Shown here in pieces: positions 16,352 through 58,949 of a DNA stretch of 64,000 nucleotides. The position numbers and the translations under genes were made by a program. Source of the DNA: a bacterium (lineage in GTDB: Bacteria > Armatimonadota > JACIXR01); NCBI GenBank assembly GCA_014360495.1, contig JACIXR010000007.1, positions 44,501 to 108,500 of the forward strand. The letters run 5' to 3'. Numbering within the stretch: the stretch's first letter is position 1; every line of letters starts with the position of its first letter. The notes beneath the pieces were generated by a model. It was given only the letters and a program-made list of their open reading frames with translations. It was not told the origin of the DNA and did not search any database.

Positions 16352-17482
16352 ATGACACCAAGGGAAAGATATAGGAGAACGCTTCTTTTCCAACAAGTTG
16401 ACAGGGTTCCCTTTCAGCCGGGCGGTCCAAGGGAATCAACCCTTAAAAGATGGCAGGAAGAAGGCTTGCCGAAGGATAGAAACTGGTTTGAATACCTCTG
16501 CGAGATATTGGGATTGGAGATTGAAAAAGCGAAAACCCCTTATGTGAGCCTGAGGATTTCCTTCGACCCCTGCCCTCCCTTTGAGGAGAAAATCATTGAA
16601 AGAAGGGGAAACCATCTGATAGTTCAGGATTACAAAGGGGCTATAGTGGAGATAGAGGATAAATACGATTTCTCTTATTTGAGATACGCTAAGGATTTTG
16701 TGACGAGGAAGTGGCATAAATTTCCCGTTGAGAAAGAAGAGGATTGGGATGAGATGAAGAAGAGGTTCAATCCCGATAGTCCGGAGAGGCTTGATGAGGA
16801 ATTGGAAGAGAAAGCGAAGATTTTGAGAGATAGAGACTGGGTTCTGACGATTAACATCCCTGGACCATTCTGGCAGATGAGGGATTGGTGTGGATTGGAG
16901 AACCTCTGCATATTTATGATTGAGAAGCCCAAATTCGTTCACGAGATGAGCGAGTTCTGGCGCAATTTCGTCTCAACTATCTTGAAGAGATATGTTGAGA
17001 AAATCCAGTTTGATTCGGTTATCATAAGCGAGGATATGGCGTATAAGGGAAAATCCATGATTTCCCCTCAAATGGTTAGGGAATTCTTATCTCCCTGCTG
17101 GCGGGAATGGAGCGAGATATTGCGGAAAAGCGGATGTGACATAATCATCCTGGATTCCGATGGCTATATCGCCGAGCTAATCCCTATTTGGATAGAAAAC
17201 GGGATAAATTGCACAATCCCCCTTGAGATAGCCGCGGGAAATGACCCCGTTGAGTTTAGAAAGAGATTTGGCAAGGGCATATCTTATATCGGAGGAATAG
17301 ATAAGAGAAAAATCGCAAAAGGAGGCAAGGATTTAAAAAAAGAGATGGAGAGGATAATACCATTTATGCTTAAGGATGGCGGCTATATCCCCTCCTGCGA
17401 CCATGGAGTGCCTCCCGATATATCCTGGCACACCTTCCTTGAATATTCCTATCTCCTCGCGAAATACACGGGCTGGCTCTGA
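16352..17482 (+). CDS. Uroporphyrinogen decarboxylase (URO-D)-family protein, non-canonical (possible methyltransferase-type member)
   Basis: 376 aa. N-terminal RERYRRTLLFQQVDRVPF resembles the URO-D family start, but the canonical HemE motif is not seen. Confidence 0.6.
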   Translation: MTPRERYRRTLLFQQVDRVPFQPGGPRESTLKRWQEEGLPKDRNWFEYLCEILGLEIEKAKTPYVSLRISFDPCPPFEEKIIERRGNHLIVQDYKGAIVEIEDKYDFSYLRYAKDFVTRKWHKFPVEKEEDWDEMKKRFNPDSPERLDEELEEKAKILRDRDWVLTINIPGPFWQMRDWCGLENLCIFMIEKPKFVHEMSEFWRNFVSTILKRYVEKIQFDSVIISEDMAYKGKSMISPQMVREFLSPCWREWSEILRKSGCDIIILDSDGYIAELIPIWIENGINCTIPLEIAAGNDPVEFRKRFGKGISYIGGIDKRKIAKGGKDLKKEMERIIPFMLKDGGYIPSCDHGVPPDISWHTFLEYSYLLAKYTGWL

Positions 17483-35584: not shown

Positions 35585-36127
35585 TCAATATTCTATCCCT
35601 TTACGGGGTGCGGTGCCCTTCTGGTAGGGATGCCTTACCATCTTCATCTCCGTTATGAGGTCAGCGATTTGCAAAATCTCCTCAGGGCAATTCCTACCTG
35701 TTATCACTATGTCCATCTTTCCAGCGAATTCCTTCAAAAAATCCAAAACCTCTTTTTTATCCAAAAGGGAGAGATTTATCGCCCAAGTCAGCTCGTCCAA
35801 GATGAGGAAATCGCATTTTCCCTCTTCCGCCCATCTTCTCGCTAAAGCGAAACCCACCCTCGCCAATTCCCTATCCTTTTCGCTTATCTCCCTTAATCCC
35901 TTGAAATCCTTCTCCTTTTCCAAAATCTCTTTTGGGACAGCGAAGCCTTTTTCTCCAAAGGTTTTTAAAAAGAAATTATCCAAATTTGACAAAACCTTCG
36001 CCTCGGATGTTGGGAACTTAAGAAATTGAACCATTAGCACTTTCCTCCCCGCCCCAAGCGCCCTTATCCCCATTCCTATTGCGGATGTCGTTTTGCCCTT
36101 TCCTTCGCCAGTGAGAACGAATATCAT
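35585..36127 (-). CDS. cobO: Cob(I)yrinic acid a,c-diamide / cob(I)alamin adenosyltransferase (CobA/CobO/BtuR type)
   Basis: MIFVLTGEGKGKTTSAIGMGIRALGAGRKVLMVQFLK P-loop signature and LILDELTWAI. Start chosen at ATG 36127, giving an ATGA overlap with the nrdJ stop; the ORF track start 36154 is an upstream extension. Confidence 0.85.
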   Translation of the reverse strand: MIFVLTGEGKGKTTSAIGMGIRALGAGRKVLMVQFLKFPTSEAKVLSNLDNFFLKTFGEKGFAVPKEILEKEKDFKGLREISEKDRELARVGFALARRWAEEGKCDFLILDELTWAINLSLLDKKEVLDFLKEFAGKMDIVITGRNCPEEILQIADLITEMKMVRHPYQKGTAPRKGIEY

Positions 36128-38670
36128 CCCGCAGCGCAAACGCTCCAACCACAATTAGGGCATATCTTACATCCCTCCTGCTGAAGCAGTGGCGTCTGAC
36201 ATACGGGACAAAGCTCCTCATCTTCCGAGACGCTCTTTCCCTCGCTGGGACCAAGCTTCAGGTAAATGGAGGGACCCTTTGCCTTCACATCCCTCATATC
36301 CGCCAGCTCTTCTGCTTTCCCCCTGCTCTCTTTCTCCCCACCAAAGGCATAAACGCCCTTTATTGACTTGTATCTGAAAACCGTTATATCCTTACATCCG
36401 AGCTCATGGGCAAGAAGGTAAGCCTTCTTTATATCCTCAACAGTTGCACTTGCGGGAAAGTTTATCGTTTTTGAAACGGAAGAATCGGTCCATTTCTGTA
36501 TCTCAGCGAGCGCCTTTATGTGGTCCTCCGCGGAAATATCAAGGGAAGTAACGAATACACGCTTCAAATGGGGCGGAATATAGGGGAGATTCTGACAGGA
36601 GCCCTCGTTCTCTGCGACATCTCTAATTAGCGCCTCGTCAAAAAGCCCTTCCCTTTCCATCAACTTCTCAAACACAGGATTCACATAGTAGAATGTGCCG
36701 ATTGAAACCCTTTTCTCATAAACGAGGCTGAAATTCGGCTCTACTCCAGCTGAACACCCAGCAATCATAGAGATGCTACCCGTGGGAGCAACGATTGTGG
36801 TATAGGCATTTCGCAAGCCATAAGCCTTTATCCCCTCCACAATGCTTTGCCAATCTTGACGCCAGCTCTCCTTTTCATAGAATCCCCTAAAGGGAAGCTT
36901 CCCCTCGGGGAAGAAGCTCTTCTTAAAGTAAGGGAAACTACCCCTTTCCTTAGCGAGTTGAATAGAAGCCACCTTTGAGTGGAAGTTGACGAACTCCATC
37001 AACCTTCCCATCCAATCCCTTCCCTCTTCGGAATCATAGGGAACCTCTAATTCATAGAGAAGGTCGGCTAAACCCATAATCCCCAAGCCTATTTTTCTCG
37101 TGTTTAGGCTCATTTCCTCTATCTCTGGGAGAGGATAATGATTGACATCCAGGATGTTATCAAGGAACTTGGTTGCCAGTTTAATAACTCTTGCGAGGTC
37201 ATCCCAATCTATTGATACCTCCCTGACTCCATTACGCTCCCTAACCCTTACGAAAGCCCAGAGGTTTATTGAACCGAGGTCGCAGGATTCGTTGGGATAT
37301 AAAAGCGATTCCCCACAGGGATTAGTTGTCTCAATTGGACCCAGGGTCTTGAGGAAAGGATTGTATTTGTTCGCGTTATCGGCGAAGATGACACCCGGCT
37401 CGGCTGATTCCCAGGCTTGATAGGCGATGAGGTCAAACAACGCATGCGGGTCAATGTATCTCATAACCTCACCAGTGCGGGGATTGACAAGTGGGTAAGG
37501 TTTTCTCTCCCGATAATAATCCCAGAACTCTGGCTTTATGAGGACGGAGATGTTGAAATTCCTCAACTGAAGATTTCCCCTCTTCGCGGTTATGAATTGC
37601 TCTATGTCGGGGTGGTTGGAGTTCAAAATCCCCATATTCGCTCCCCTTCTAATTCCGCCTTGCTTTATTACCTCCGTCATCTTATCAAAGAGGGTCATAA
37701 ATGTGACTGGTCCGGAAGCTGTTCCCGCAGTGCTCTTGACGAAATCTCCCGCTGGTCTCAGCTTGGAGAAGTTATATCCGACTCCACCGCCGGATTTGAA
37801 AATCAAGGCTGCGTTCTTAAGCGTCTCCATAATGGAGTAAAGGCTATCATCTATATCCAAAACGAAGCACGCGAGCCCCATCCCTAATTCCCTGCCGAAG
37901 TTGGCGAGAGCGGGCGTATTGGGGAAAAATTTCCTGTCCACCATTATCTGATAATAATCCTCCAGCTCCTTCTCATAATCATCAAACTCGCCCCTGCTCA
38001 ACATGTCAAGCAATTGGGAAAGGGGAATCTTCACCTTCCCCTTTTTATTAAATCTCTCATACATCCTGAAGAGCGCCTCTATATGAAAAGGATTAAGGAG
38101 ATACTTGCCTATCCTCAATTTCCCCTCATATTGCGTTGGAGAAAGCTTCTCCTTCGGCAGTGGCTTTCCACCCCTCTGGAAAACCCTCTCATCATACATT
38201 ATAGATGGCAAAACGACATGGGTCGCCACCCTCTGGAACAGCTCCTTAGGGGATTCTATTACCTTCCCTTGAGGGTCTTTCCTAAGATATCGGGAAGCGA
38301 GAACTCTGAGCCCATTTATATCAAACCTCTTATCAACCTCGTCTATCTCTGTTTTATTGAGGATTTGCTGCTTCTCCTTGCGAATTTCCGCCCTTTTCCT
38401 TCTATATAAAATATAGGCTTTAGCTACCCTCGCCTTCCCTTCCTCTATTAGGACTGCCTCAACTATATCTTGAACCTCTTCAACTTTAGGAATTTGCCAA
38501 GGCTGAAGCTTCTTCTCCAATATCTCCACAACCCTCTTGCTAAGCTTATCAGCGAGCTCGTAGTCGGGCTCTCCCACCGCCTCCATAGCCTTGAAGATAG
38601 CGTTTGTTATCTTCTCTCTCTCAAAAGGGACTACCTTTCCATCTCTTTTCTCAATTTTCTCTATTCTCAC
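36124..38670 (-). CDS. nrdJ: Ribonucleotide reductase, adenosylcobalamin-dependent (class II), with N-terminal ATP-cone and C-terminal Cys-rich zinc ribbon
   Basis: 848 aa. ATP-cone N-terminus (IEKRDGKVVPFEREKITNAIFKA); active-site NPCGE motif; C-terminal CPVCQ...CKICPNCGWSVC. No nrdB-like partner adjacent, and the next gene is cobO. Confidence 0.75.
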   Translation of the reverse strand: MRIEKIEKRDGKVVPFEREKITNAIFKAMEAVGEPDYELADKLSKRVVEILEKKLQPWQIPKVEEVQDIVEAVLIEEGKARVAKAYILYRRKRAEIRKEKQQILNKTEIDEVDKRFDINGLRVLASRYLRKDPQGKVIESPKELFQRVATHVVLPSIMYDERVFQRGGKPLPKEKLSPTQYEGKLRIGKYLLNPFHIEALFRMYERFNKKGKVKIPLSQLLDMLSRGEFDDYEKELEDYYQIMVDRKFFPNTPALANFGRELGMGLACFVLDIDDSLYSIMETLKNAALIFKSGGGVGYNFSKLRPAGDFVKSTAGTASGPVTFMTLFDKMTEVIKQGGIRRGANMGILNSNHPDIEQFITAKRGNLQLRNFNISVLIKPEFWDYYRERKPYPLVNPRTGEVMRYIDPHALFDLIAYQAWESAEPGVIFADNANKYNPFLKTLGPIETTNPCGESLLYPNESCDLGSINLWAFVRVRERNGVREVSIDWDDLARVIKLATKFLDNILDVNHYPLPEIEEMSLNTRKIGLGIMGLADLLYELEVPYDSEEGRDWMGRLMEFVNFHSKVASIQLAKERGSFPYFKKSFFPEGKLPFRGFYEKESWRQDWQSIVEGIKAYGLRNAYTTIVAPTGSISMIAGCSAGVEPNFSLVYEKRVSIGTFYYVNPVFEKLMEREGLFDEALIRDVAENEGSCQNLPYIPPHLKRVFVTSLDISAEDHIKALAEIQKWTDSSVSKTINFPASATVEDIKKAYLLAHELGCKDITVFRYKSIKGVYAFGGEKESRGKAEELADMRDVKAKGPSIYLKLGPSEGKSVSEDEELCPVCQTPLLQQEGCKICPNCGWSVCAAG

Positions 38671-48634: not shown

Positions 48635-48710
48635 TGGAGCGGGCGACGGGACTCGAACCCGCGACCTTCGGCTTGGAAGGCCGATGCTCTACCATGTGAG
48701 CTACGCCCGC
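48635..48710 (-). tRNA. tRNA-Gly (anticodon UCC), CCA encoded
   Basis: Reverse complement GCGGGCGTAGCTCACATGGTAGAGCATCGGCCTTCCAAGCCGAAGGTCGCGGGTTCGAGTCCCGTCGCCCGCTCCA. Folds as a cloverleaf by eye: 7-bp acceptor, anticodon loop CTTCCAA, T-loop GGTTCGAGTCC. Confidence 0.9.
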
Positions 48711-48712
48711 TC

Positions 48713-48800
48713 TGGTGGGCGAGGGGAGAGTTGAACTCCCACAGGTGTTGAACCCATCGGATCCTAAGTCCGACGCGTCTACCAGTTCCGCCACTCGCCC
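48713..48800 (-). tRNA. tRNA-Leu (anticodon UAG), type II with long variable arm, CCA encoded
   Basis: Reverse complement GGGCGAGTGGCGGAACTGGTAGACGCGTCGGACTTAGGATCCGATGGGTTCAACACCTGTGGGAGTTCAACTCTCCCCTCGCCCACCA. Anticodon loop CTTAGGA, long variable arm. Confidence 0.88.
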
Positions 48801-51174: not shown

Positions 51175-51203
51175 GTGTGCCCGCCCCCTGGGGGCGGGCA
51201 CAC
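51175..51203. promoter_or_regulatory. Perfect GC-rich palindrome (13-bp arms, 3-nt spacer): candidate operator or hairpin
   Basis: gtgtgcccgcccc-ctg-ggggcgggcacac. Lies in the divergent intergenic region between the TPR gene and mtaB. Confidence 0.5.
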
Positions 51204-51442
51204 TTGAAAGGAAAGGAGGTGAAAAAGATGAGGAAGAGGCTTCACGCTTCATTTTTATTAGACTATTAAGAGGGAAAAATGTTACACCCAAATAAAATGA
51301 AAGTTTTCGTTTCTTAATGTTTATTTGGGAATCTCTTTAACTCACCCCAGAATTTATTAAAGCAATTATAATCACCATAAGCGTATATTCAACCAACCTT
51401 CCTCTTTTCTCAATATTTACATCAATACCTAAGAATAAATTT

Positions 51443-51471
51443 TTTGACGACGGATAGATTTCCTACTAAAA
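51443..51471 (+). promoter_or_regulatory. Putative sigma70-type promoter of the mtaB operon
   Basis: TTGACG (51443-51448), 17-nt spacer, TAAAAT (51466-51471); followed by AGGAGG RBS and ATG 51503. Confidence 0.45.
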
Positions 51472-51502
51472 TAATTCAAAAATTTAGGAGGTTGATTTGG
51501 AT

Positions 51503-52870
51503 ATGAGTAGTATGGTTTATGAAAATTGGCAGGAGATGCTCTTCGGCATCTCAAAAAAGCCGATAAAGTGTGGCTTAGGCTTGGAGATTGGTTCAGGGGA
51601 GGTTATCCCCGAGATTAAGCCGCATCCTCGCCCCGGAATGGAAGCCAGCCTTGATTCACTGCTTGAAGAATACAAACGCATTACAAATGATATAATGGAG
51701 AGGGCAATAAAGCTTGGATTTCCCTCCATAATGTTGGAAATAGAACATGTTGCCCAACTCACCCTTAACCCGGCTTGGGGTGAAGAGGTCGTAAAGATTT
51801 GTAAGGATATCCTCCATAAATTTCATCAAAGATACGGGATAAAATGCGCTCTACGAGCCACGATAGCTGATGTGAGGAGGAGTGAGCATAATTTGAGGAA
51901 GAGCAAGGAGACAGACCTATTATTTGAATCTTTTGAAAGATGTGCCCGAGCGGGAGCAGATGTCCTCTCTATTGAATCAATAGGGGGCAAAGAGGTCTTC
52001 AATTACGCTCTCACTCGTCAGGATTTGCCAGGCATTCTCTTCGCCATAGCTGTATTGGGAAGCAGGGATATGGAATTTCTTTGGGATAGAATCGTTGAGA
52101 TAGCGGAGCAATACGAATCCATCCCGGGTGGAGATACGGATTGTGCCCACGCTAACACCGCGATGATGCTTGCTGGCGGGATGGTAGGGGGAGACTTCCC
52201 GCATACCGTTGCCGCTCTAATTAGAGCAATGGCGGGAGCCCGCTCTTTGGTTGCGGTGGAAAGGGGAGCTAAAGGACCTCTTAAGGATTGTGGATACGAA
52301 AACCCCATAATAAAGGCAATCACTGGTGTCCCAATATCCATGGAAGGGAAAACAGCTGCTTGCGCTCATATGGATTTAATGGGAAATCTCGCCGCCTCGG
52401 TATGCGACTTGTGGTCTAATGAGGCTGTTGAGTATAGAGATATGTTTGGTGGCACAACGATTGCCGTCTTCACGGAGATACTTGGCTACGATGCTTCTCT
52501 GTTCAACACAGCCCTCGCTACAGGCTACGCTGAGTGCTTAAGAGATTTGCTGGTTGCTTCTGATAAATATCGTGACCCTCAAGCATTGGTCATCTCACCA
52601 GATGTAGCCTGGGAAATCGGAAAAGTAGTAGCCGATACCCAAGGATATTACTTAAGGGCGAAAAGGGCTGTTCTTAAGGCTGGCGAAATAATTAAAAGAG
52701 AGTTAAAGGAAGGGAATTTACAAATTCCCCAACGGGAATTAGACGCCTTAGATTCCGCTCTCCTGCAACTTTCTTCCCTTCCTGACGATGAGGAGAAATT
52801 CACTCACGATATGAAGGGCAAATACGAAACACTTGTTGAGGATTTCCTTCCATCTTCCTATGACATCTAA
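51503..52870 (+). CDS. mtaB: Methanol:corrinoid methyltransferase, MtaB family
   Basis: From the Met at 51503 the protein reads SMVYENWQEMLFGISKKPIKCGLGLEIGSGEVIPEIKPHPRPG...EYKRITNDIMERAIKLGFPSIMLEIEHVAQLTLNPAWGEEV...YGIKCALRATIADVR. This closely parallels recalled Methanosarcina MtaB (SMAYANADEMTFGVSKYPVKAGLDLEIGAG...EYERITTDVMERAV...GIKCALRHTIGDIR). Conserved Cys positions (DTDCAHAN, AACAHMD) are present. The ORF track start is TTG 51497. Confidence 0.85.
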   Translation: MSSMVYENWQEMLFGISKKPIKCGLGLEIGSGEVIPEIKPHPRPGMEASLDSLLEEYKRITNDIMERAIKLGFPSIMLEIEHVAQLTLNPAWGEEVVKICKDILHKFHQRYGIKCALRATIADVRRSEHNLRKSKETDLLFESFERCARAGADVLSIESIGGKEVFNYALTRQDLPGILFAIAVLGSRDMEFLWDRIVEIAEQYESIPGGDTDCAHANTAMMLAGGMVGGDFPHTVAALIRAMAGARSLVAVERGAKGPLKDCGYENPIIKAITGVPISMEGKTAACAHMDLMGNLAASVCDLWSNEAVEYRDMFGGTTIAVFTEILGYDASLFNTALATGYAECLRDLLVASDKYRDPQALVISPDVAWEIGKVVADTQGYYLRAKRAVLKAGEIIKRELKEGNLQIPQRELDALDSALLQLSSLPDDEEKFTHDMKGKYETLVEDFLPSSYDI

Positions 52871-52885
52871 AAGGAGGTAATGCAA

Positions 52886-54631
52886 ATGTCTATCTTTAAA
52901 AATGTTTTAGCTTCGCTTTTGAGGGAAAGAAAAAGCTTTTACCCCTGCCTCTCCGCTAATCCAACGCCTACATTTGAGCAAATGAAGGCAGTTAATAGCT
53001 TCTTCCCCGCTGCTCATAAAGACCCCGAGAAGATGTCCCATTTAGCGATTGCAGGTCATAAATTAATCGGATTTGACGCAGTAAGAATCCCCTTCTGCCA
53101 AACTATTGAAGCGGAGGCGCTTGGTTGTGAGGTTTTCCTTGGTAGCGACAACATACCAACTGTCATATCCCATCCTTATCGCATAGGGGATAAGTTTATC
53201 CTTCCCGACGATATCTTAAAAAGGGGAAGAATACCCGTCCTCTTGGAAGCAATTAAAATTATCAAAGACGAAGTTAAGGAAGTGCCCCTCATAGTTGGAC
53301 TTGTTGGCCCTTTCACAATAACCGGCTATCTGTTTGGGATGACCCAACTTCTTATGCAGATGGCTATTTCACCCGAGGAGATTCTTCCTTACATGGAGAT
53401 GGCCCTACAGGTGAATGAAATTCTTGTTAAAGCTGTTGAGGAGGCGGGTGCTGACATAATCTGTGTTGAGGATATGACCGCCTCCACTGATATGATTAGT
53501 CCAGATATGTATAAAGATTTTATTCTTCCCTATCACGAAAAACTTTTTTCCTTTATATCTCTCCCCTCAATTCTCCACATTTGCGGGAATGTTACCCCTA
53601 TAATCGGATATATGGCTGAAACTGGTGCTGACGCCTTAAGCATTGATGATAAAACAGACTTGAGGAGGGCAAGAGATATTACTAAAATGAAAGTTACTTT
53701 GCTGGGTAATCTTAATCCTTCCACTACCCTTCTTCATGGGGACGAGAAAAAAGTTAGGGAAGCAACAAGAAAAGCCATCCGGGATGGAATCGACATAGTT
53801 GCTCCTGGCTGCGCCCTCCCCCTTGGTACCCCCTCTTCTAACCTGCGTGCGATGGTTGAGGAAACGCATAAGGCAAGCCTACCAAAGACCTTCACAGGAA
53901 TATCTGCTCCCATCTATCCCTTCAGACTCTACGGAATTGAAGAGAAAAAGGGAAAAGAAATAACCCCCGAAGTGGAAACTCCCTTTCCCCGTATAAGGGA
54001 AGCAGTGCTTAAAGGTAATAAAGAAGAATGCAGGAAGGCGACCGAGGAAGCCCTTTCAATAGCCAATCCCGAAGAAGTAATAGAGAAGGGATTGGTTAAG
54101 GCAATGGATGAGGTAGGGAAATTATGGGAAGAAGGCTACTTCTTCCTTCCCCAAGTTATGCTCTCCGCTGATGCTCTAATGGAGGGGTTAGAACTATGCG
54201 AGAGGAAAATGGGGGCAAGGTTGAAGAAAAAGGGGAAAGTGGTGCTTTTTGTGGCTAAAGGCGATATTCATACCATTGGCAAGAACATAGTGAAAGCACT
54301 CCTTTCTGCTTCTGGGTTTGAAGTAATAGATTTAGGAGTGGATATTGATGATGAGGAGGTTATAAGGGCAGTGAAGAAGCATAAACCGGTTCTTTTGGGG
54401 GGTTCGGCACTTATGACCACGACTATGTCTGCATTTCCCCGCATCGCCAAAAGACTTCTGGAGGAGGGTATAGAAATCCCCTTTGCCTGTGGAGGAGGAG
54501 CAGTTAATGAGGAATTTTGTGATACATTCCCCCTGGGCATATATGGAGGTGAAGCGAGAAGGGCTCCGCTGATTGCTGAGGCAGCGTTAGAGGGTAAGAA
54601 TTGGAGAGAAATCAAAGAAATGTTTCGTTAA
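52886..54631 (+). CDS. Fused MtaA-like methylcobamide methyltransferase (URO-D fold) and MtaC-like corrinoid (B12-binding) protein
   Basis: N-terminal about 340 aa match recalled archaeal MtaA (RGRIPVLLEAIKIIKDEV; LHICGNVTPI; VAPGCALPLGTP). C-terminus has a helical cap plus Rossmann B12-binding domain with the DxHxxG motif (KGDIHTIGKN) and GGSALMTTT. AGGAGG RBS 8 nt upstream of ATG 52886; 15-nt gap after mtaB. Confidence 0.85.
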   Translation: MSIFKNVLASLLRERKSFYPCLSANPTPTFEQMKAVNSFFPAAHKDPEKMSHLAIAGHKLIGFDAVRIPFCQTIEAEALGCEVFLGSDNIPTVISHPYRIGDKFILPDDILKRGRIPVLLEAIKIIKDEVKEVPLIVGLVGPFTITGYLFGMTQLLMQMAISPEEILPYMEMALQVNEILVKAVEEAGADIICVEDMTASTDMISPDMYKDFILPYHEKLFSFISLPSILHICGNVTPIIGYMAETGADALSIDDKTDLRRARDITKMKVTLLGNLNPSTTLLHGDEKKVREATRKAIRDGIDIVAPGCALPLGTPSSNLRAMVEETHKASLPKTFTGISAPIYPFRLYGIEEKKGKEITPEVETPFPRIREAVLKGNKEECRKATEEALSIANPEEVIEKGLVKAMDEVGKLWEEGYFFLPQVMLSADALMEGLELCERKMGARLKKKGKVVLFVAKGDIHTIGKNIVKALLSASGFEVIDLGVDIDDEEVIRAVKKHKPVLLGGSALMTTTMSAFPRIAKRLLEEGIEIPFACGGGAVNEEFCDTFPLGIYGGEARRAPLIAEAALEGKNWREIKEMFR

Positions 54632-54659: not shown

Positions 54660-57600
54660 TTAGAAGGAGCGGGTGAGGTCGAGCCTGAGACCGACATTGT
54701 TCTTCCCCTTGAAGTTATCGGTGTAGTAGCCGGACAAGCTGAGGGAGTTCTCAGGATTTATGTTGCGAGAATAGGAGAACCTGTAGGTTATTCCACCAAC
54801 CTTGTCTCCCGCAATTGAGGAGTAGTCAAGGCTAACAGAGGTATCAAGCGTCTCATAAGCGGAAAGCTTGCCGGAGATGGCAAAAAGGCTCTTGTAAACT
54901 CCCTTATTTTCCCTCTCTATGAAGTTGTATTCGTGGCATCCCTTGAAGGAAAGCTTATCGTTGAGAGGGAATGCAATCTCCCAATTGAGCTTTCTGGTAA
55001 GCTTCTTATTTGGGTCGGGAACATTATCAAGAAGCGCAATCTTCAAGTTGAACTTCGGGGAAGGAGTGTATTGAAGTGCATACTGCTTGTTCATCTTTCC
55101 ATTCATATAATTGCTATCCAGAATGTATTCACCAGAAAGGACTGGAGAGCCCTGATATTTCAAGACGACCCTCTTGGTATTGAGGACATTTCCCTTTTGG
55201 TCCTCGGGATTTCTCAACAAAGAAAGGGTGAAGGTCTTCCCATCAAAGGGATAGACGATATCCAATCCCCTCGTCGTCTTGTCGTTCTGCCCGCTCCTAT
55301 CCTTGAAGGTGAAGCTGAGCTTATAGGGGGCACCTTGAGGTTGATAATTAGCCTGAAGCAGGCGGTAAGAGTTGGATTTATCTCCGAGGGACTGGATTCC
55401 ATATGCGAGATTGCCAGTTAAACCTGGGATGAAAGTCCTCGTTAAGGAGAATTCCTGCTTCTTTCCGTCCTTCCCGTTTTGCGTCATCTTGATGTTCTCC
55501 GCTTTAAACTGGGATTGGGAATCAAGTTTTTGAACAAGAGCTATCCTCCTGAAGCTGTGCTCCGCGCTTTCCTTAAAGGAAAAGCTCAAGGTTCCCGCTT
55601 TTCCTTTAAGCAAAGGAGAGTTGATATCAATGCTTCCTTCGTCAATTCTCTTGCCATCCTCCAGATTTTTACGAGAAAAGTTAAGGGCGTAGGAGAAGTT
55701 TTTCTTCAAAGACTGGTTAAAGTTTATAACGGTCAAATCGGACTGAAATTCCTTATCCCCTTCCTTCCTGTATCCCTGCATCCTCTGGAGTTTGAGGTGA
55801 GCATTGGCGAAGGCTTTCTCAACTATCAGGTTATAGATGTCGTTGGAACGATTAACATCGCTAACCTGCTTGGTGGAATCCAAAGTGAGATAGGCTTTCA
55901 GATTATTCTTGCCGGTGAATGCCAAGTTATGGACGCTATGGGTTGTGGATTTGCCCCACATCCCGTCGCTCCTCGTGATATCCAAGCTCTCTATCTTGGT
56001 GATGGAGGTGGAGAAGGCAAGATTCTTTGAGAGAGGCAATGCAAGGAAGAAGTCCTTCTTCTCCGCGGACCTCTCCTGGGCAAGGCGTCCCTTGTCAGCC
56101 TCTGCTAAATCCGCAAATCTCGTGAACGATGGGTCTATGGTTTGAGTTGCGAAGCGGAAAATAGGCTGGTCCTTCACTTTCAGCTCTATGCTCTTCCCGT
56201 CAATTGAACCTTGAGAGTCCCCTATCTTGCGAGAGGATAGAGAAAGGGTCAAGCCCGGCAGGAGGTTATCAAGCTTGAAATTACCGCTCAAGAGGGATTT
56301 CTTTATTCCCCATTCATTGGCAAATCTCTTCTTTTCCGGGTCGGTCAAATCTCCGAAACGCCTGAACCCCTCGCTGAACTCACTCTTATAGAACGAGATT
56401 TGCCACTTATCGCTCTTCAATTGTAGGCTGTTGCCCTTCCAACCTTCTTTCCCATCCAATAAGCTAGCGATGCTAAAGGAAGTCTGCAATTTAGGCGAGA
56501 AGTTGAACGAACCCTCAATGGTCTTCCTCGCCAACCCCTTTTCCTTTGCGAGCTGACCAGCGTCGGGCTCAGTTAAATTGCCAAAGCGAGCGAAATCCCG
56601 TCCAACTTCCTGCTTGCTGATTGAAAGGGAGAAATTCTTCCCCTTCAAGTCCAATTTCCCCCTCTCAATTCCATCCTTCTCATCTTTTATCCTCGTCTGG
56701 GAAAGGTTGAGGGTAATATTGGGGAGAAGATTCTTGGAAAGTTCCAGTGAATTCCTGCTTATCCCAATCTCCTTCGCCCATATTTTCGCTTCCGGCTCGT
56801 TCAAATCCTTCCCCCTCACGAAATCGGAGGTTATGCTTTGCTGGGTTAGACGGAGGAACTCGTTGTTATTGCCCTTTAGCTCTATCTGCCTCAATTTTCC
56901 CTCCCCTTTACCGTCGGTGGCGGATTTGTAAACAGTGGAAAGGGAAAGCGAATCGGAGAGCTTTATCTGCCCAGAGATTATCTGCTTGGTGATTCCCTTC
57001 TCCCTTGCCACTCCTTGGTTGCCCTTCGTTTGGGGGTCAACGGTTTGGCGAGTGAAGGAAAGGGAAAAAGCGGAGCTTTGGTAGCCAACTCCAAACTTCT
57101 TCGTGCCCGCCTCCTGCTTGAGGAAGGCAACATCCTTGCCGTTTAGATTATCGGGAATTCCCTGAGCGAGGAAATCCTTGTCTATCTCCTGATAGAAGAG
57201 GGTCAGCTTCCCCTTCCCCAAGGAGTAATCCAACCAGTTGGCGAAAGCCTTGCCTTTCTGGGAGGGAGCAGGGGCAGCGTTATCCCTTGTCATACCAGCA
57301 AGATAGTTATTCGTTGGTGATGTTCTGCTGAAGAAGAGGAGTCCCCTCCAAGTCGCATTGGAGCTCAACTTTGAGGTCAAGTCACTGCCGACAATCCAAG
57401 TCTCCATCTTATCCTGACCCGCTACAGCGGGGCGGAAGAAAGTAAATAGGCTGAGGGTAGATGAACCGCCGTTGAACGCAAGCTGGAGAGGCAGTCCGCT
57501 TGGAGATTGATTCTGCTTATTCGGGTCATAGTGATAAGAGACGATGAGGGTTCCCGATTTTATGTCCCCAGGGAGGAGAATCGTTCCATTAGCGTAATCA

Positions 57601-57854
57601 ATGATATAATCTACATCCCGCTTGAGGAAGCGCCCATTTGCGATTACCTTCTCGCTTCCCTCCACTATCCCCCTATGGGAGAGATAGAATACGCCACCCT
57701 TTACCACCTTCAGGGTGTCTGTGTAGAAAAGGGCTCCCTGTACGGCTGGCGCCTCATTCTGAAACCTCAAGGCTCCATTGGGCGCCGGCAATTCAAGGGA
57801 AAAAGCAAGGGAAGCTATCAAGCTAATTAAACTCAAAAATAGGAAACGCTTCAT
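54660..57854 (-). CDS. Giant outer-membrane-like protein with internal ~45-aa degenerate repeats and C-terminal aromatic residue
   Basis: Signal peptide MKRFLFLSLISLIASLAFS, taking the start at the internal Met 57854; the ORF track start is 57884. At least five repeats of type [D/E]F.RFG.L.[ED]P.... (DFARFGNLTEPDAG..., GFRRFGDLTDPEKK..., SFTRFADLAEADKG...). Ends ...GLRLDLTRSF, as in beta-barrel OMPs. Confidence 0.5.
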   Translation of the reverse strand: MKRFLFLSLISLIASLAFSLELPAPNGALRFQNEAPAVQGALFYTDTLKVVKGGVFYLSHRGIVEGSEKVIANGRFLKRDVDYIIDYANGTILLPGDIKSGTLIVSYHYDPNKQNQSPSGLPLQLAFNGGSSTLSLFTFFRPAVAGQDKMETWIVGSDLTSKLSSNATWRGLLFFSRTSPTNNYLAGMTRDNAAPAPSQKGKAFANWLDYSLGKGKLTLFYQEIDKDFLAQGIPDNLNGKDVAFLKQEAGTKKFGVGYQSSAFSLSFTRQTVDPQTKGNQGVAREKGITKQIISGQIKLSDSLSLSTVYKSATDGKGEGKLRQIELKGNNNEFLRLTQQSITSDFVRGKDLNEPEAKIWAKEIGISRNSLELSKNLLPNITLNLSQTRIKDEKDGIERGKLDLKGKNFSLSISKQEVGRDFARFGNLTEPDAGQLAKEKGLARKTIEGSFNFSPKLQTSFSIASLLDGKEGWKGNSLQLKSDKWQISFYKSEFSEGFRRFGDLTDPEKKRFANEWGIKKSLLSGNFKLDNLLPGLTLSLSSRKIGDSQGSIDGKSIELKVKDQPIFRFATQTIDPSFTRFADLAEADKGRLAQERSAEKKDFFLALPLSKNLAFSTSITKIESLDITRSDGMWGKSTTHSVHNLAFTGKNNLKAYLTLDSTKQVSDVNRSNDIYNLIVEKAFANAHLKLQRMQGYRKEGDKEFQSDLTVINFNQSLKKNFSYALNFSRKNLEDGKRIDEGSIDINSPLLKGKAGTLSFSFKESAEHSFRRIALVQKLDSQSQFKAENIKMTQNGKDGKKQEFSLTRTFIPGLTGNLAYGIQSLGDKSNSYRLLQANYQPQGAPYKLSFTFKDRSGQNDKTTRGLDIVYPFDGKTFTLSLLRNPEDQKGNVLNTKRVVLKYQGSPVLSGEYILDSNYMNGKMNKQYALQYTPSPKFNLKIALLDNVPDPNKKLTRKLNWEIAFPLNDKLSFKGCHEYNFIERENKGVYKSLFAISGKLSAYETLDTSVSLDYSSIAGDKVGGITYRFSYSRNINPENSLSLSGYYTDNFKGKNNVGLRLDLTRSF

Positions 57855-57902
57855 AGTTTCTCTCACCTCCTTGGGGACCACCATCGGGGTTCAACTCCCA
57901 AA

Positions 57903-58949
57903 TTAGAACTCAATCCTCGCTACCCCGATGACAATGCTTTTGTCCAAACGCTCACCTATCTTGGAGGGTAGAGAAGGTTTCTGGAAGGAGCTCGTTGCTT
58001 CCTTGAGAAGCTCGGAAACGGAGGTTTGGGGCTTAACCGCTACCTTTATCCCTTCAGCTGGAGAGGTTTCCTTAGCGGGTTGGGGTTGCTCTGCGACCTT
58101 TACCTCTTTCTGATTTGTCTCCACCTGTGCGGGTTTTTCGCTCGGCTGAGTTGAAGAAGTCTGGCTAACGGTTGGCTGGGAAACTTCCTCTTGTGGAACC
58201 TGAGGAACTACAACGGTTGCCTCTTGGGGAGCTTGGGAAATAGCTGGTGGAATCACAGCCTTCTCCCGCCTTGTGGTTTCCTTTACCTTCTCTTTAGGAA
58301 CCACCCTAGCCAACCTCTTAGCAGTAGCAGCAGGCTTGACCTCCCTTTTTACGGGTTCACGAGAGGACAGGATTCTTTGAGCGACTGCAGGAGTGGTGGG
58401 CGAGGTCGTGGGGTGATGGATGGGGAGAGCGAAGAAAACGAGGGAAGCGGCAGCAGCAAGAGTGGTGAAGCCAATCGCAATGCGACGCAAGAAGATGGGT
58501 CTCCTCTCTATTGCGGCGTATATCCTCTGCCTGAGATAGCGAGGAGCTTCCACCTCGGGAAGGGAATGGAGAAGCTCTTGCAGCTTCTTTTCTCCTTCCA
58601 GCTCTTCCTTGCAATCCCCGCACATAGCGATATGCTCCTCAACCTTCTCTTTCTCGGCTTCGGAGATATCGCCATCCGCATAGAGGGTCAGCAAGGGGCG
58701 AACGACCTCGCATTCCTGCTCCTTCGCAACCCTTGCCATAATCCTCTCTCTGAGGGAGATGGGAGGCTGAACCTCCTCAACCTGGCGGGCGAAGCTCTTT
58801 ACACTCTCCAGCTCCCTCAACTCGCTCCTGCACCTCTCACACTCTTGGAGGTGCCACTCAACACTTTCCCTTTCCGCTTTGGAGAGTTCTCCGTCCAAGT
58901 AGGCGGAAAGGATGGGAGAGATTTGCTCGCAGCTGATTCTTCTTGCCAT
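57903..58949 (-). CDS. Anti-sigma factor with two tandem zf-HC2 domains, one TM helix and Pro/Thr/Gln-rich periplasmic region
   Basis: 348 aa. CEQISPILSAYLDGELS...HLQECERCRSEL, then a second copy EVVRPLLTLYADGDIS...HIAMCGDCKEEL; TM helix IAIGFTTLAAAASLVFFALPI; low-complexity P/T/Q/V-rich tail. Confidence 0.7.
   Translation of the reverse strand: MARRISCEQISPILSAYLDGELSKAERESVEWHLQECERCRSELRELESVKSFARQVEEVQPPISLRERIMARVAKEQECEVVRPLLTLYADGDISEAEKEKVEEHIAMCGDCKEELEGEKKLQELLHSLPEVEAPRYLRQRIYAAIERRPIFLRRIAIGFTTLAAAASLVFFALPIHHPTTSPTTPAVAQRILSSREPVKREVKPAATAKRLARVVPKEKVKETTRREKAVIPPAISQAPQEATVVVPQVPQEEVSQPTVSQTSSTQPSEKPAQVETNQKEVKVAEQPQPAKETSPAEGIKVAVKPQTSVSELLKEATSSFQKPSLPSKIGERLDKSIVIGVARIEF

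Follow-up and report, generated by a model that had tools for sequence, protein, structure and literature searches.

A bacterial mtaB operon encoding a fused MtaA- and MtaC-like protein, a probable methanol-dependent corrinoid methyltransferase system

The methanol methyltransferase system of Methanosarcina species (MtaABC; PDB entries 2I2X and 4AY7) is built from three separate proteins, MtaB, MtaC and MtaA, and uses coenzyme M (CoM) as its methyl acceptor. We analyzed a 64,000-nucleotide stretch of bacterial DNA (contig JACIXR010000007.1, positions 44,501 to 108,500; hereafter the window) that carries a two-gene locus for which this archaeal system is the closest in sequence and in fold, as evident by the fact that all three of its modules find their best matches there. 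In the window, however, the A and C components are joined in that order in one chain encoded directly downstream of mtaB, and the host is a bacterium without sign of methanogenesis, unlike the Methanosarcina hosts of MtaABC. MtaA-like URO-D proteins are widespread in bacteria and have no assigned role outside methanogens (PMC10418091).

The components and the chemistry are already known, the gene has been deposited under a generic family name, and related fusions have been mentioned in passing. What appears to be undescribed is an mtaB-mtaAC module of two genes that is conserved and co-evolving in bacteria other than methanogens; neither an mtaB-linked MtaA-MtaC fusion nor MtaB in Armatimonadota was described in the literature searched. 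Most bacterial MtaA-like clusters leave both donor and acceptor undefined, whereas here MtaB fixes methanol as the donor, and the fusion fixes which corrinoid module works with which methyltransferase. The acceptor is therefore the only remaining piece, which makes the pair a clean two-protein target for biochemistry.

The fused protein and its MtaB partner

The operon and the parts of the fused protein are located in the window as follows.

51444..51472, + strand: promoter-like -35/-10 sequence TTGACG-17-TAAAAT before mtaB (consensus scan, 10/12 matches)
51503..52870, + strand: mtaB, methanol:corrinoid methyltransferase (MT1; Pfam PF12176), with an alternative TTG start at 51497
52873..52877, + strand: GGAGG, ribosome-binding site of the fusion gene, spaced 8 nt from the ATG at 52886 and 2 nt from the one at 52880
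52886..54631, + strand: fusion gene (MtaA-like domain, linker, MtaC-like domain), 581 amino acids plus stop
52901..53872, + strand: N-terminal URO-D-fold MtaA-like zinc methyltransferase domain, residues 6-329 (Pfam, NCBIfam, 4AY7, Foldseek)
53576..53584, + strand: zinc ligands H231-I-C233, invariant in 22 aligned fused proteins and equivalent to HIC of M. mazei MtaA
53645..53647, + strand: D254, candidate carboxylate zinc ligand, aligned with the first E of 'sveek' in 4AY7
53810..53812, + strand: zinc ligand C309, invariant, aligned with the APGC cysteine of 4AY7
53885..53971, + strand: flexible inter-domain linker, residues 334-362 (low model confidence; variable in the family)
53990..54199, + strand: corrinoid 'cap' four-helix domain, B12-binding_2 (PF02607; model helices 368-442)
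54233..54508, + strand: Rossmann-type B12-binding domain (PF02310) containing DxHxxG, SALMTTT and GGG

The enclosing open reading frame (ORF) in the six-frame listing is 52880..54631 (+), which would give 583 amino acids from its upstream ATG. Because GGAGG is spaced 8 nt from the second ATG and an identical public gene call uses that codon (P0001, 581 amino acids, 100% identical; MBC7330136.1, labelled 'MtaA/CmuA family methyltransferase [bacterium]' in NCBI), the ATG at 52886 is the likely true start, in agreement with the coordinates assigned in a first-pass annotation of this stretch. That annotation had read the product as one chain in which an MtaA-like URO-D domain precedes a corrinoid-binding module, and Pfam, NCBIfam and fold matches all bear this out. 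In the residue numbering of the 583-amino-acid version, Pfam assigns URO-D to residues 8-331 (E 3e-74, 250 bits), B12-binding_2 to residues 371-440 (4e-24, 85 bits) and B12-binding to residues 452-543 (1e-22, 80.5 bits).

The residues expected of each module are in place. The N-terminal half combines a URO-D barrel with the His-x-Cys...Cys arrangement of MtaA, and its carboxylate position is filled by D254, a site at which 55 of 56 tight-family sequences have D or E (an H-C-(D/E)-C signature). H231, C233 and C309 align with the MtaA zinc ligands reported as His240, Cys242 and Cys319 (Hoeppner et al., 2012), and D254 aligns with the fourth ligand, Glu263. The C-terminal half has the cap and Rossmann domain of MtaC, with genetic linkage to mtaB. 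The two motifs that had been quoted for it in the annotation, KGDIHTIGKN and GGSALMTTT, are indeed present, with D460-x-H462-x-x-G465 at 54263-54280 and SALMTTT (residues 507-513) at 54404-54424, and GGG lies at 54491-54499. Invariant positions in the 22-member alignment are H231-x-C233, C309, D460-x-H462-x-x-G465, ALMTTT and GGG.

An AlphaFold2 model built from the same alignment has a predicted local distance difference test score (pLDDT) of 84.9 and a predicted template modelling score (pTM) of 0.77, and pLDDT values below 50 are confined to residues 334-362. Foldseek matches the N-terminal half to M. mazei MtaA (4AY7) with a TMt of 0.94 and a root mean square deviation of 1.3 Å. The C-terminal half is modelled confidently as a four-helix cap followed by a B12-binding Rossmann domain and matches M. 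barkeri MtaC (2I2X_B) with a TMt of 0.70, a result that answers the domain-boundary check proposed with the first-pass annotation. Sequence searches of the PDB give the same two partners (4AY7, 234 bits and ~38% identity for the N-terminal half; 2I2X_B, 214 bits over residues 352-580 and ~48% identity for the C-terminal half). As judged from these comparisons, both halves are closest to proteins of the methanogen methanol system.

Family models place the fused protein in the mtaA_cmuA subfamily (TIGR01463, 285.3 bits against a cutoff of 235.4) and in PRK06252 (327 against 244), and it falls slightly under the cutoff of TIGR02370 (201.3 against 215.3). A B12-sensor identity was considered and rejected, as the CarH model yields only 30 bits versus 257 bits for MtaC.

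The annotation had also stated that MtaB is present. The ORF from 51497 (457 amino acids) ends 15 nt before the fusion gene and is full length, with a Pfam MtaB match of 652.7 bits over residues 3-456. It aligns over its full length with M. barkeri MtaB (2I2X_A; 507 bits, ~60% identity), and the zinc ligands Glu164, Cys220 and Cys269 are kept in that alignment.

Authenticity, distribution and linkage of the fusion

The chance that a sequencing or assembly error joined adjacent mtaA and mtaC genes needs to be considered for any protein of this kind. In a metagenome-assembled genome (MAG) of an uncultured member of the Eubacteriales (L006 5569-7278), an MtaA-like gene and a corrinoid-protein gene are separate, lying in the same frame 24 nt apart, and a single lost stop could therefore mimic a fusion. 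However, it is exceedingly improbable that an artefact of this type produced the gene in the window. The identical 581-amino-acid protein, with the same mtaB neighbour, occurs in three independent Logan assemblies (three sequencing runs) in addition to the NCBI entry, and a search of 5.8 billion proteins recovered ~36 clusters at 90% identity that share all three Pfam domains, are 38-100% identical to the query and span 511-627 amino acids. The linker varies in length and sequence among the 22 aligned members (columns ~340-420) and always stays open and in frame, and the window ORF is continuous and gives a confident two-module model. The fusion is genuine and not an assembly artefact, which, together with the confident C-terminal model, removes both conditions under which the first-pass annotation was to be abandoned.

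The L006 arrangement is a plausible pre-fusion state. Its neighbours comprise a sigma-54 regulator, a corrinoid protein, MtaB, a second corrinoid protein, CobW and RACo.

When 1.84 billion representatives at 50% identity were scanned with HMMER, ~8 members of the tight family were recovered, along with about a dozen distant fusions of the same order (26-32% identity) and a few of reverse order. Thermanaeromonas toyohensis and Desulfomicrobium carry same-order fusions of the distant set (~32% identical to the window protein), and the reverse-order proteins are distant matches only (P0212; P0253 and P0280, with a C-terminal URO-D domain). Fusion relatives occur in Armatimonadota and also in Archaeoglobaceae. 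In neighbour-joining trees, the fused corrinoid domains form a clade with a bootstrap value of 71, and monophyly of the N-terminal domains receives a value of only 35. A single fusion origin therefore seems likely for the bacterial members. The Archaeoglobaceae versions (P0032 and P0033), and likewise P0035, have no mtaB nearby, and because their N-terminal domains are nearest to stand-alone MtaA sequences, they may be separate fusions.

At two loci of the Archaeoglobaceae type (L090 5350-12826, an Archaeoglobaceae MAG, and L100 1932-9455, the P0033 locus), the fused gene, which is not beside mtaB, follows genes for an aldehyde dehydrogenase, a small ORF without a Pfam match, and FAD_binding_4 and CCG-domain (HdrD/GlcF-like) proteins, and precedes an arginase-family gene. 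This context points to another donor or another role.

In all eight bacterial lineages inspected, which are 46-100% identical to the window protein, mtaB lies immediately upstream of the fusion gene. The junctions are as follows.

Window lineage, 100% identity: 15-nt gap with GGAGG
P0007 lineage (L094), 72% identity: 17-nt gap with GGAGG
P0009 lineage, 55% identity: mtaB and fusion overlap by ATGA
P0017 lineage, 52% identity: zero intergenic gap
P0020 lineage, 48% identity (Armatimonadota, hot spring): ATGA overlap
P0024 lineage, 47% identity: 105-nt gap
P0027 lineage, 47% identity: two small ORFs inserted between mtaB and fusion
P0029 lineage, 46% identity (biogas fermenter): mtaB upstream of fusion

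Pairwise MtaB identities correlate with those of the N-terminal half (r = 0.83) and the C-terminal half (r = 0.75) of the fusion. Between lineages, identities are 42-53% for the N-terminal domain, 53-64% for MtaB and 54-67% for the corrinoid module. The 653-bit MtaB and the fusion thus form a two-gene operon whose linkage is conserved, whose members are co-diverging and whose translation is partly coupled.

A putative mtaB promoter is placed at 51444..51472. Promoter-like sites in the region are no more numerous than expected by chance in the consensus scan; this one is the sole intergenic part that aligns with the 72%-identity lineage L094 (TTGTCA...TAAAAT). A riboswitch in the 400-nt mtaB leader was sought and discarded, as Rfam returned nothing at the gathering threshold and only chance-level matches at E values up to 1.

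The pair has only housekeeping genes around it in the window lineage and in P0007. Other lineages add free corrinoid proteins, RACo, a Met_synt_B12 domain protein, DUF1638 and one to four URO-D paralogues beside the pair.

Several of these neighbourhoods merit description in their own right. In the P0027 lineage, one of the two ORFs between mtaB and the fusion (L088 9336-9865) is a toxin-like DUF4258 protein, and the fusion gene is followed by a free corrinoid protein and a stand-alone Met_synt_B12 (MetH reactivation-domain) protein, which hints at S-adenosylmethionine-dependent reactivation. An Armatimonadota hot-spring locus (L091 7532-17936) has four URO-D paralogues and a free corrinoid protein around mtaB and the fusion, together with an aldo-keto-reductase/ferredoxin fusion and a small sulfite/nitrite-reductase-like (NIR_SIR) protein, and these neighbours may connect the locus to sulfur metabolism. 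In two lineages, SufBD, cysteine desulfurase and NifU genes (Fe-S assembly and sulfur mobilisation) abut mtaB, and in two NadA lies just upstream of it; both cases may be mere shared synteny (L101 583-6563; L084 5983-8443; L094 7591-8493).

Proposed methyl transfer and genomic setting

The operon probably encodes a compact methanol-dependent corrinoid methyltransferase system that is complete in itself, in a bacterium that is not a methanogen. In the mechanism we propose, MtaB, a zinc enzyme, would activate methanol and methylate the Co(I) of a corrinoid held base-off/His-on by the C-terminal MtaC-like module. Carried on the disordered linker of ~30 residues, this module would move from MtaB to the MtaA-like barrel of its own chain or of an oligomer partner, where a thiolate on the His-Cys-Cys zinc site would accept the methyl group and Co(I) would be regenerated. 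Candidate acceptors would include CoM or a similar small thiol, homocysteine, and sulfide or methanethiol. Reactivation of Co(II) would have to come from a gene outside the window.

The setting of the operon bears on this mechanism in two ways. A six-frame scan with hidden Markov models (HMMs) identifies the fusion as the sole corrinoid-binding domain in the window, and it is therefore the only candidate partner for MtaB there. In addition, the host is an uncultured bacterium and not a methanogen, and the classical acceptor CoM therefore cannot be assumed. Host ValS is at least 71% identical solely to 'bacterium' MAG relatives and below that ~54% identical to proteins across many phyla, which argues that the host belongs to a deep bacterial lineage. 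Its genes in the window include housekeeping functions (ClpX, ClpP, trigger factor, Lon, ValS, GlyQ/GlyS, DivIVA and an N_methyl/DUF1559 protein) and many glycoside hydrolases and related enzymes, among them arabinofuranosidase, rhamnogalacturonan-lyase-like and GH123-like proteins.

Both the direction of transfer at the N-terminal domain and the thiol nature of the acceptor are points that we infer from sequence. A His-Cys-Cys site marks the S/Se-methyltransferases of the UroD superfamily, and carboxylates replace Cys in the O-methyltransferases (Kountz & Balskus; PMC10418091). The first-pass annotation had proposed that MtaB loads the corrinoid and that the fused domain off-loads it. The MtaB partnership and the tethered corrinoid stand, whereas off-loading is drawn solely from similarity to MtaA.

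A number of observations weigh against the proposed mechanism. CmuA, a loader, has identical H-C-D-C zinc positions, and the zinc ligands were therefore discarded as a discriminator between loaders and off-loaders. MtsA catalyzes both half-reactions (Tallant et al., 2001, as cited in PMC10418091), and the acetogen methanol MT2 is a separate ~30 kDa protein that methylates tetrahydrofolate (THF; PMC13391211, PMC13602510). For these reasons, off-loading is a proposed role. Solitary mtaA copies are moreover repressed on methanol in acetogens (PMC13391211). Neither CoM genes, a RamA/RACo activase nor a downstream pathway was found in Pfam scans of the window ORFs. That the proteins function as their methanogen counterparts do is not assured, because the fusion misses the cutoffs of the MtaA_Meth equivalog (NF040654; 332.1 bits against 400) and the MtaC equivalogs (NF040669 and NF040655; 257.1 and 242.5 bits against 450 and 420), and MtaB misses that of MtaB_Meth (648 bits against 720). 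The quicker divergence of the N-terminal domain could reflect changing acceptor specificity or relaxed constraint. Finally, because several relatives carry URO-D paralogues and free corrinoid proteins at the pair, the wiring may be more complex than we propose.

Some of the same observations would fit a different assignment, in which the URO-D domain acts as an additional loader or works in both directions, like CmuA or MtsA and MtsD/F/H. The fusion would then gather methyl groups from methanol through MtaB and from a methylated sulfur or halide compound through its own domain, and an unlinked pterin-type MT2 or a MetH-like enzyme would off-load them to THF. This assignment draws support from CmuA, which matches the fusion in domain order and ligands and serves as both MT1 and corrinoid protein (PMC13222342), from the two-way action of MtsA, from the separate THF-methylating MtaA of the characterized bacterial methanol systems, and from the extra corrinoid proteins and URO-D paralogues beside the pair in several relatives. 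We nonetheless consider it unlikely, given that no pterin-type (PF00809) methyltransferase was found either in the window or in the flanks inspected in 11 lineages, which extended up to 8-10 kb on each side, that the N-terminal domain is ~38% identical to MtaA versus ~26% to CmuA, and that the operon of the window lineage and of P0007 consists of two genes only, set among housekeeping genes. True methanol:CoM transfer, with the bacterium making or importing CoM and the operon acquired from methanogenic archaea, seems improbable. The top NCBIfam scores do go to the methanogen equivalogs MtaA_Meth, MtaC and MtaB_Meth, the best PDB matches are Methanosarcina proteins, and fused relatives occur in Archaeoglobaceae. 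However, none of the three equivalog cutoffs is reached, genes related to CoM or consuming methyl-CoM were found neither in the window nor in the flanks of relatives, and methyl-CoM has no known fate in the absence of MCR. The base composition of the operon is also like that of the rest of the window, and this is therefore not a recent transfer.

A more specific form of our proposal, which we offer tentatively, is that the pair acts as a stand-alone methanol:thiol methyltransferase of non-methanogenic, non-acetogenic carbohydrate degraders, which might, for example, pass methanol released from pectin to a cellular or environmental thiol. A plant-polymer setting is consistent with the arabinofuranosidase and rhamnogalacturonan-lyase-like enzymes encoded by the host. 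Were homocysteine the acceptor, this activity would amount to folate-independent, methanol-driven methionine synthesis; were it sulfide or methanethiol, the product would be biogenic methylated sulfur. Either outcome would represent an undescribed fate of methanol and the first assigned role for bacterial MtaA-like proteins. With a general thiol acceptor, methanol from plant polymers would be consumed without methanogenesis or acetogenesis.

Other features of the window and its relatives are recorded here as observations. The only other URO-D-like ORF in the window (16352-17482, +; 376 amino acids) is very divergent (35.8 bits to Pfam, 23 bits to an HMM of the fused-family N-terminal domain) and lies amid glycoside-hydrolase genes; the P0009 lineage (L084/L085) has a 365-amino-acid URO-D protein beside a Glyco_hydro_42 gene. 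A BtuR/CobO corrinoid adenosyltransferase gene (35585-36154, -) overlaps the end of an ATP-cone ribonucleotide reductase gene (36124-38670, -), which suggests an adenosylcobalamin-dependent class II enzyme and shows that corrinoid handling in the host does not depend on the mta operon. The 400-nt intergenic region between a TPR gene and mtaB contains, on the minus strand, a 13-bp GC-rich hairpin with a T-run (51175-51203) and, ~160 nt upstream on the same strand, a promoter-like site (51365-51392). A 196-nt stretch of this region folds with z = -4.5, belongs to no Rfam family and lacks conservation in the 72%-identity lineage; it may be a small RNA, or a leader or attenuator for the TPR gene. 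A gene convergent with the fusion gene (54660-57884, -) encodes a 1074-amino-acid protein that has a signal-peptide-like N-terminus and matches no Pfam family; it lies directly downstream of a zf-HC2 anti-sigma-factor-like gene (57903-58949, -), and this pair is kept in the independent assemblies L001 and L002. Two adjacent tRNA genes (48638-48800, -; Rfam 72.6 and 58.4 bits) lie between trigger-factor and solute-binding-protein genes.

Comparison with other corrinoid methyltransferase systems

In architecture, the fusion most resembles CmuA of Methylorubrum extorquens CM4 and Hyphomicrobium (617 amino acids), with which it shares domain order, similar length, the H-C-D-C positions and a pass of TIGR01463. 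The order of URO-D followed by cap and Rossmann domain was confirmed with family HMMs on the CM4 and pJM105 CmuA proteins. The likeness to CmuA-type fusions drawn in the first-pass annotation accordingly holds for domain order; in sequence, however, identity is only 24.8-27% (tblastn against the CM4 plasmid gene and a cloned cmuA), or 25-26% in each half. The CmuA N-terminal domain lies at a Kimura distance of at least 1.77 from every MtaA-like sequence. Given this low identity and large distance, it seems that the fusion arose inside the MtaA-like radiation, independently of CmuA. The two systems also differ in their partners. CmuA loads its own corrinoid from chloromethane ('MTI and CP') and is off-loaded by CmuB (PMC13222342), whereas the fusion has a conserved, dedicated loader in MtaB, and no CmuB-type (pterin-binding) gene was found in the window.

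In MtsD, MtsF and MtsH of Methanosarcina acetivorans, a corrinoid domain is likewise joined to an MtaA/MtsA-like URO-D methyltransferase. The corrinoid domain of these proteins is N-terminal and the MtaA/MtsA-like domain C-terminal, an order opposite to that of the fusion, and the distant relatives with reverse order have no MtaB partner. The Mts fusions offer a precedent for methyl-sulfur chemistry (Oelgeschlager & Rother, 2009, and Fu & Metcalf, 2015, as cited in PMC10418091).

Acetogens provide another bacterial example of MtaB-dependent methanol entry with clustered genes (MtaABC of Acetobacterium woodii and Eubacterium limosum, MtaA1B1C1 of Moorella thermoacetica). Thermanaeromonas, whose same-order fusion is only ~32% identical to the window protein, is related to this group. 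Their THF-methylating MtaA of ~30 kDa is grouped with AcsE, MetH and MtvA (PMC13222342), whereas no gene for an MT2 of this type was found in the operon, the window or the flanks of relatives. The Mlp type 1 clusters of non-methanogens (PMC10418091) combine a His-Cys-Cys MtaA-like URO-D protein with a corrinoid protein and lack a THF methyltransferase, and some fusion relatives, like these clusters, adjoin RACo, free corrinoid proteins and URO-D paralogues. Mlp type 1 clusters, however, lack MtaB and are not described as fusions, and their proposed role is the demethylation of methyl selenides or sulfides (PMC10418091), whereas in the operon described here MtaB defines the donor. As with MetH and CmuA, the fusion also offers a natural experiment on the effect that tethering of a corrinoid carrier has on its shuttling between two active sites.

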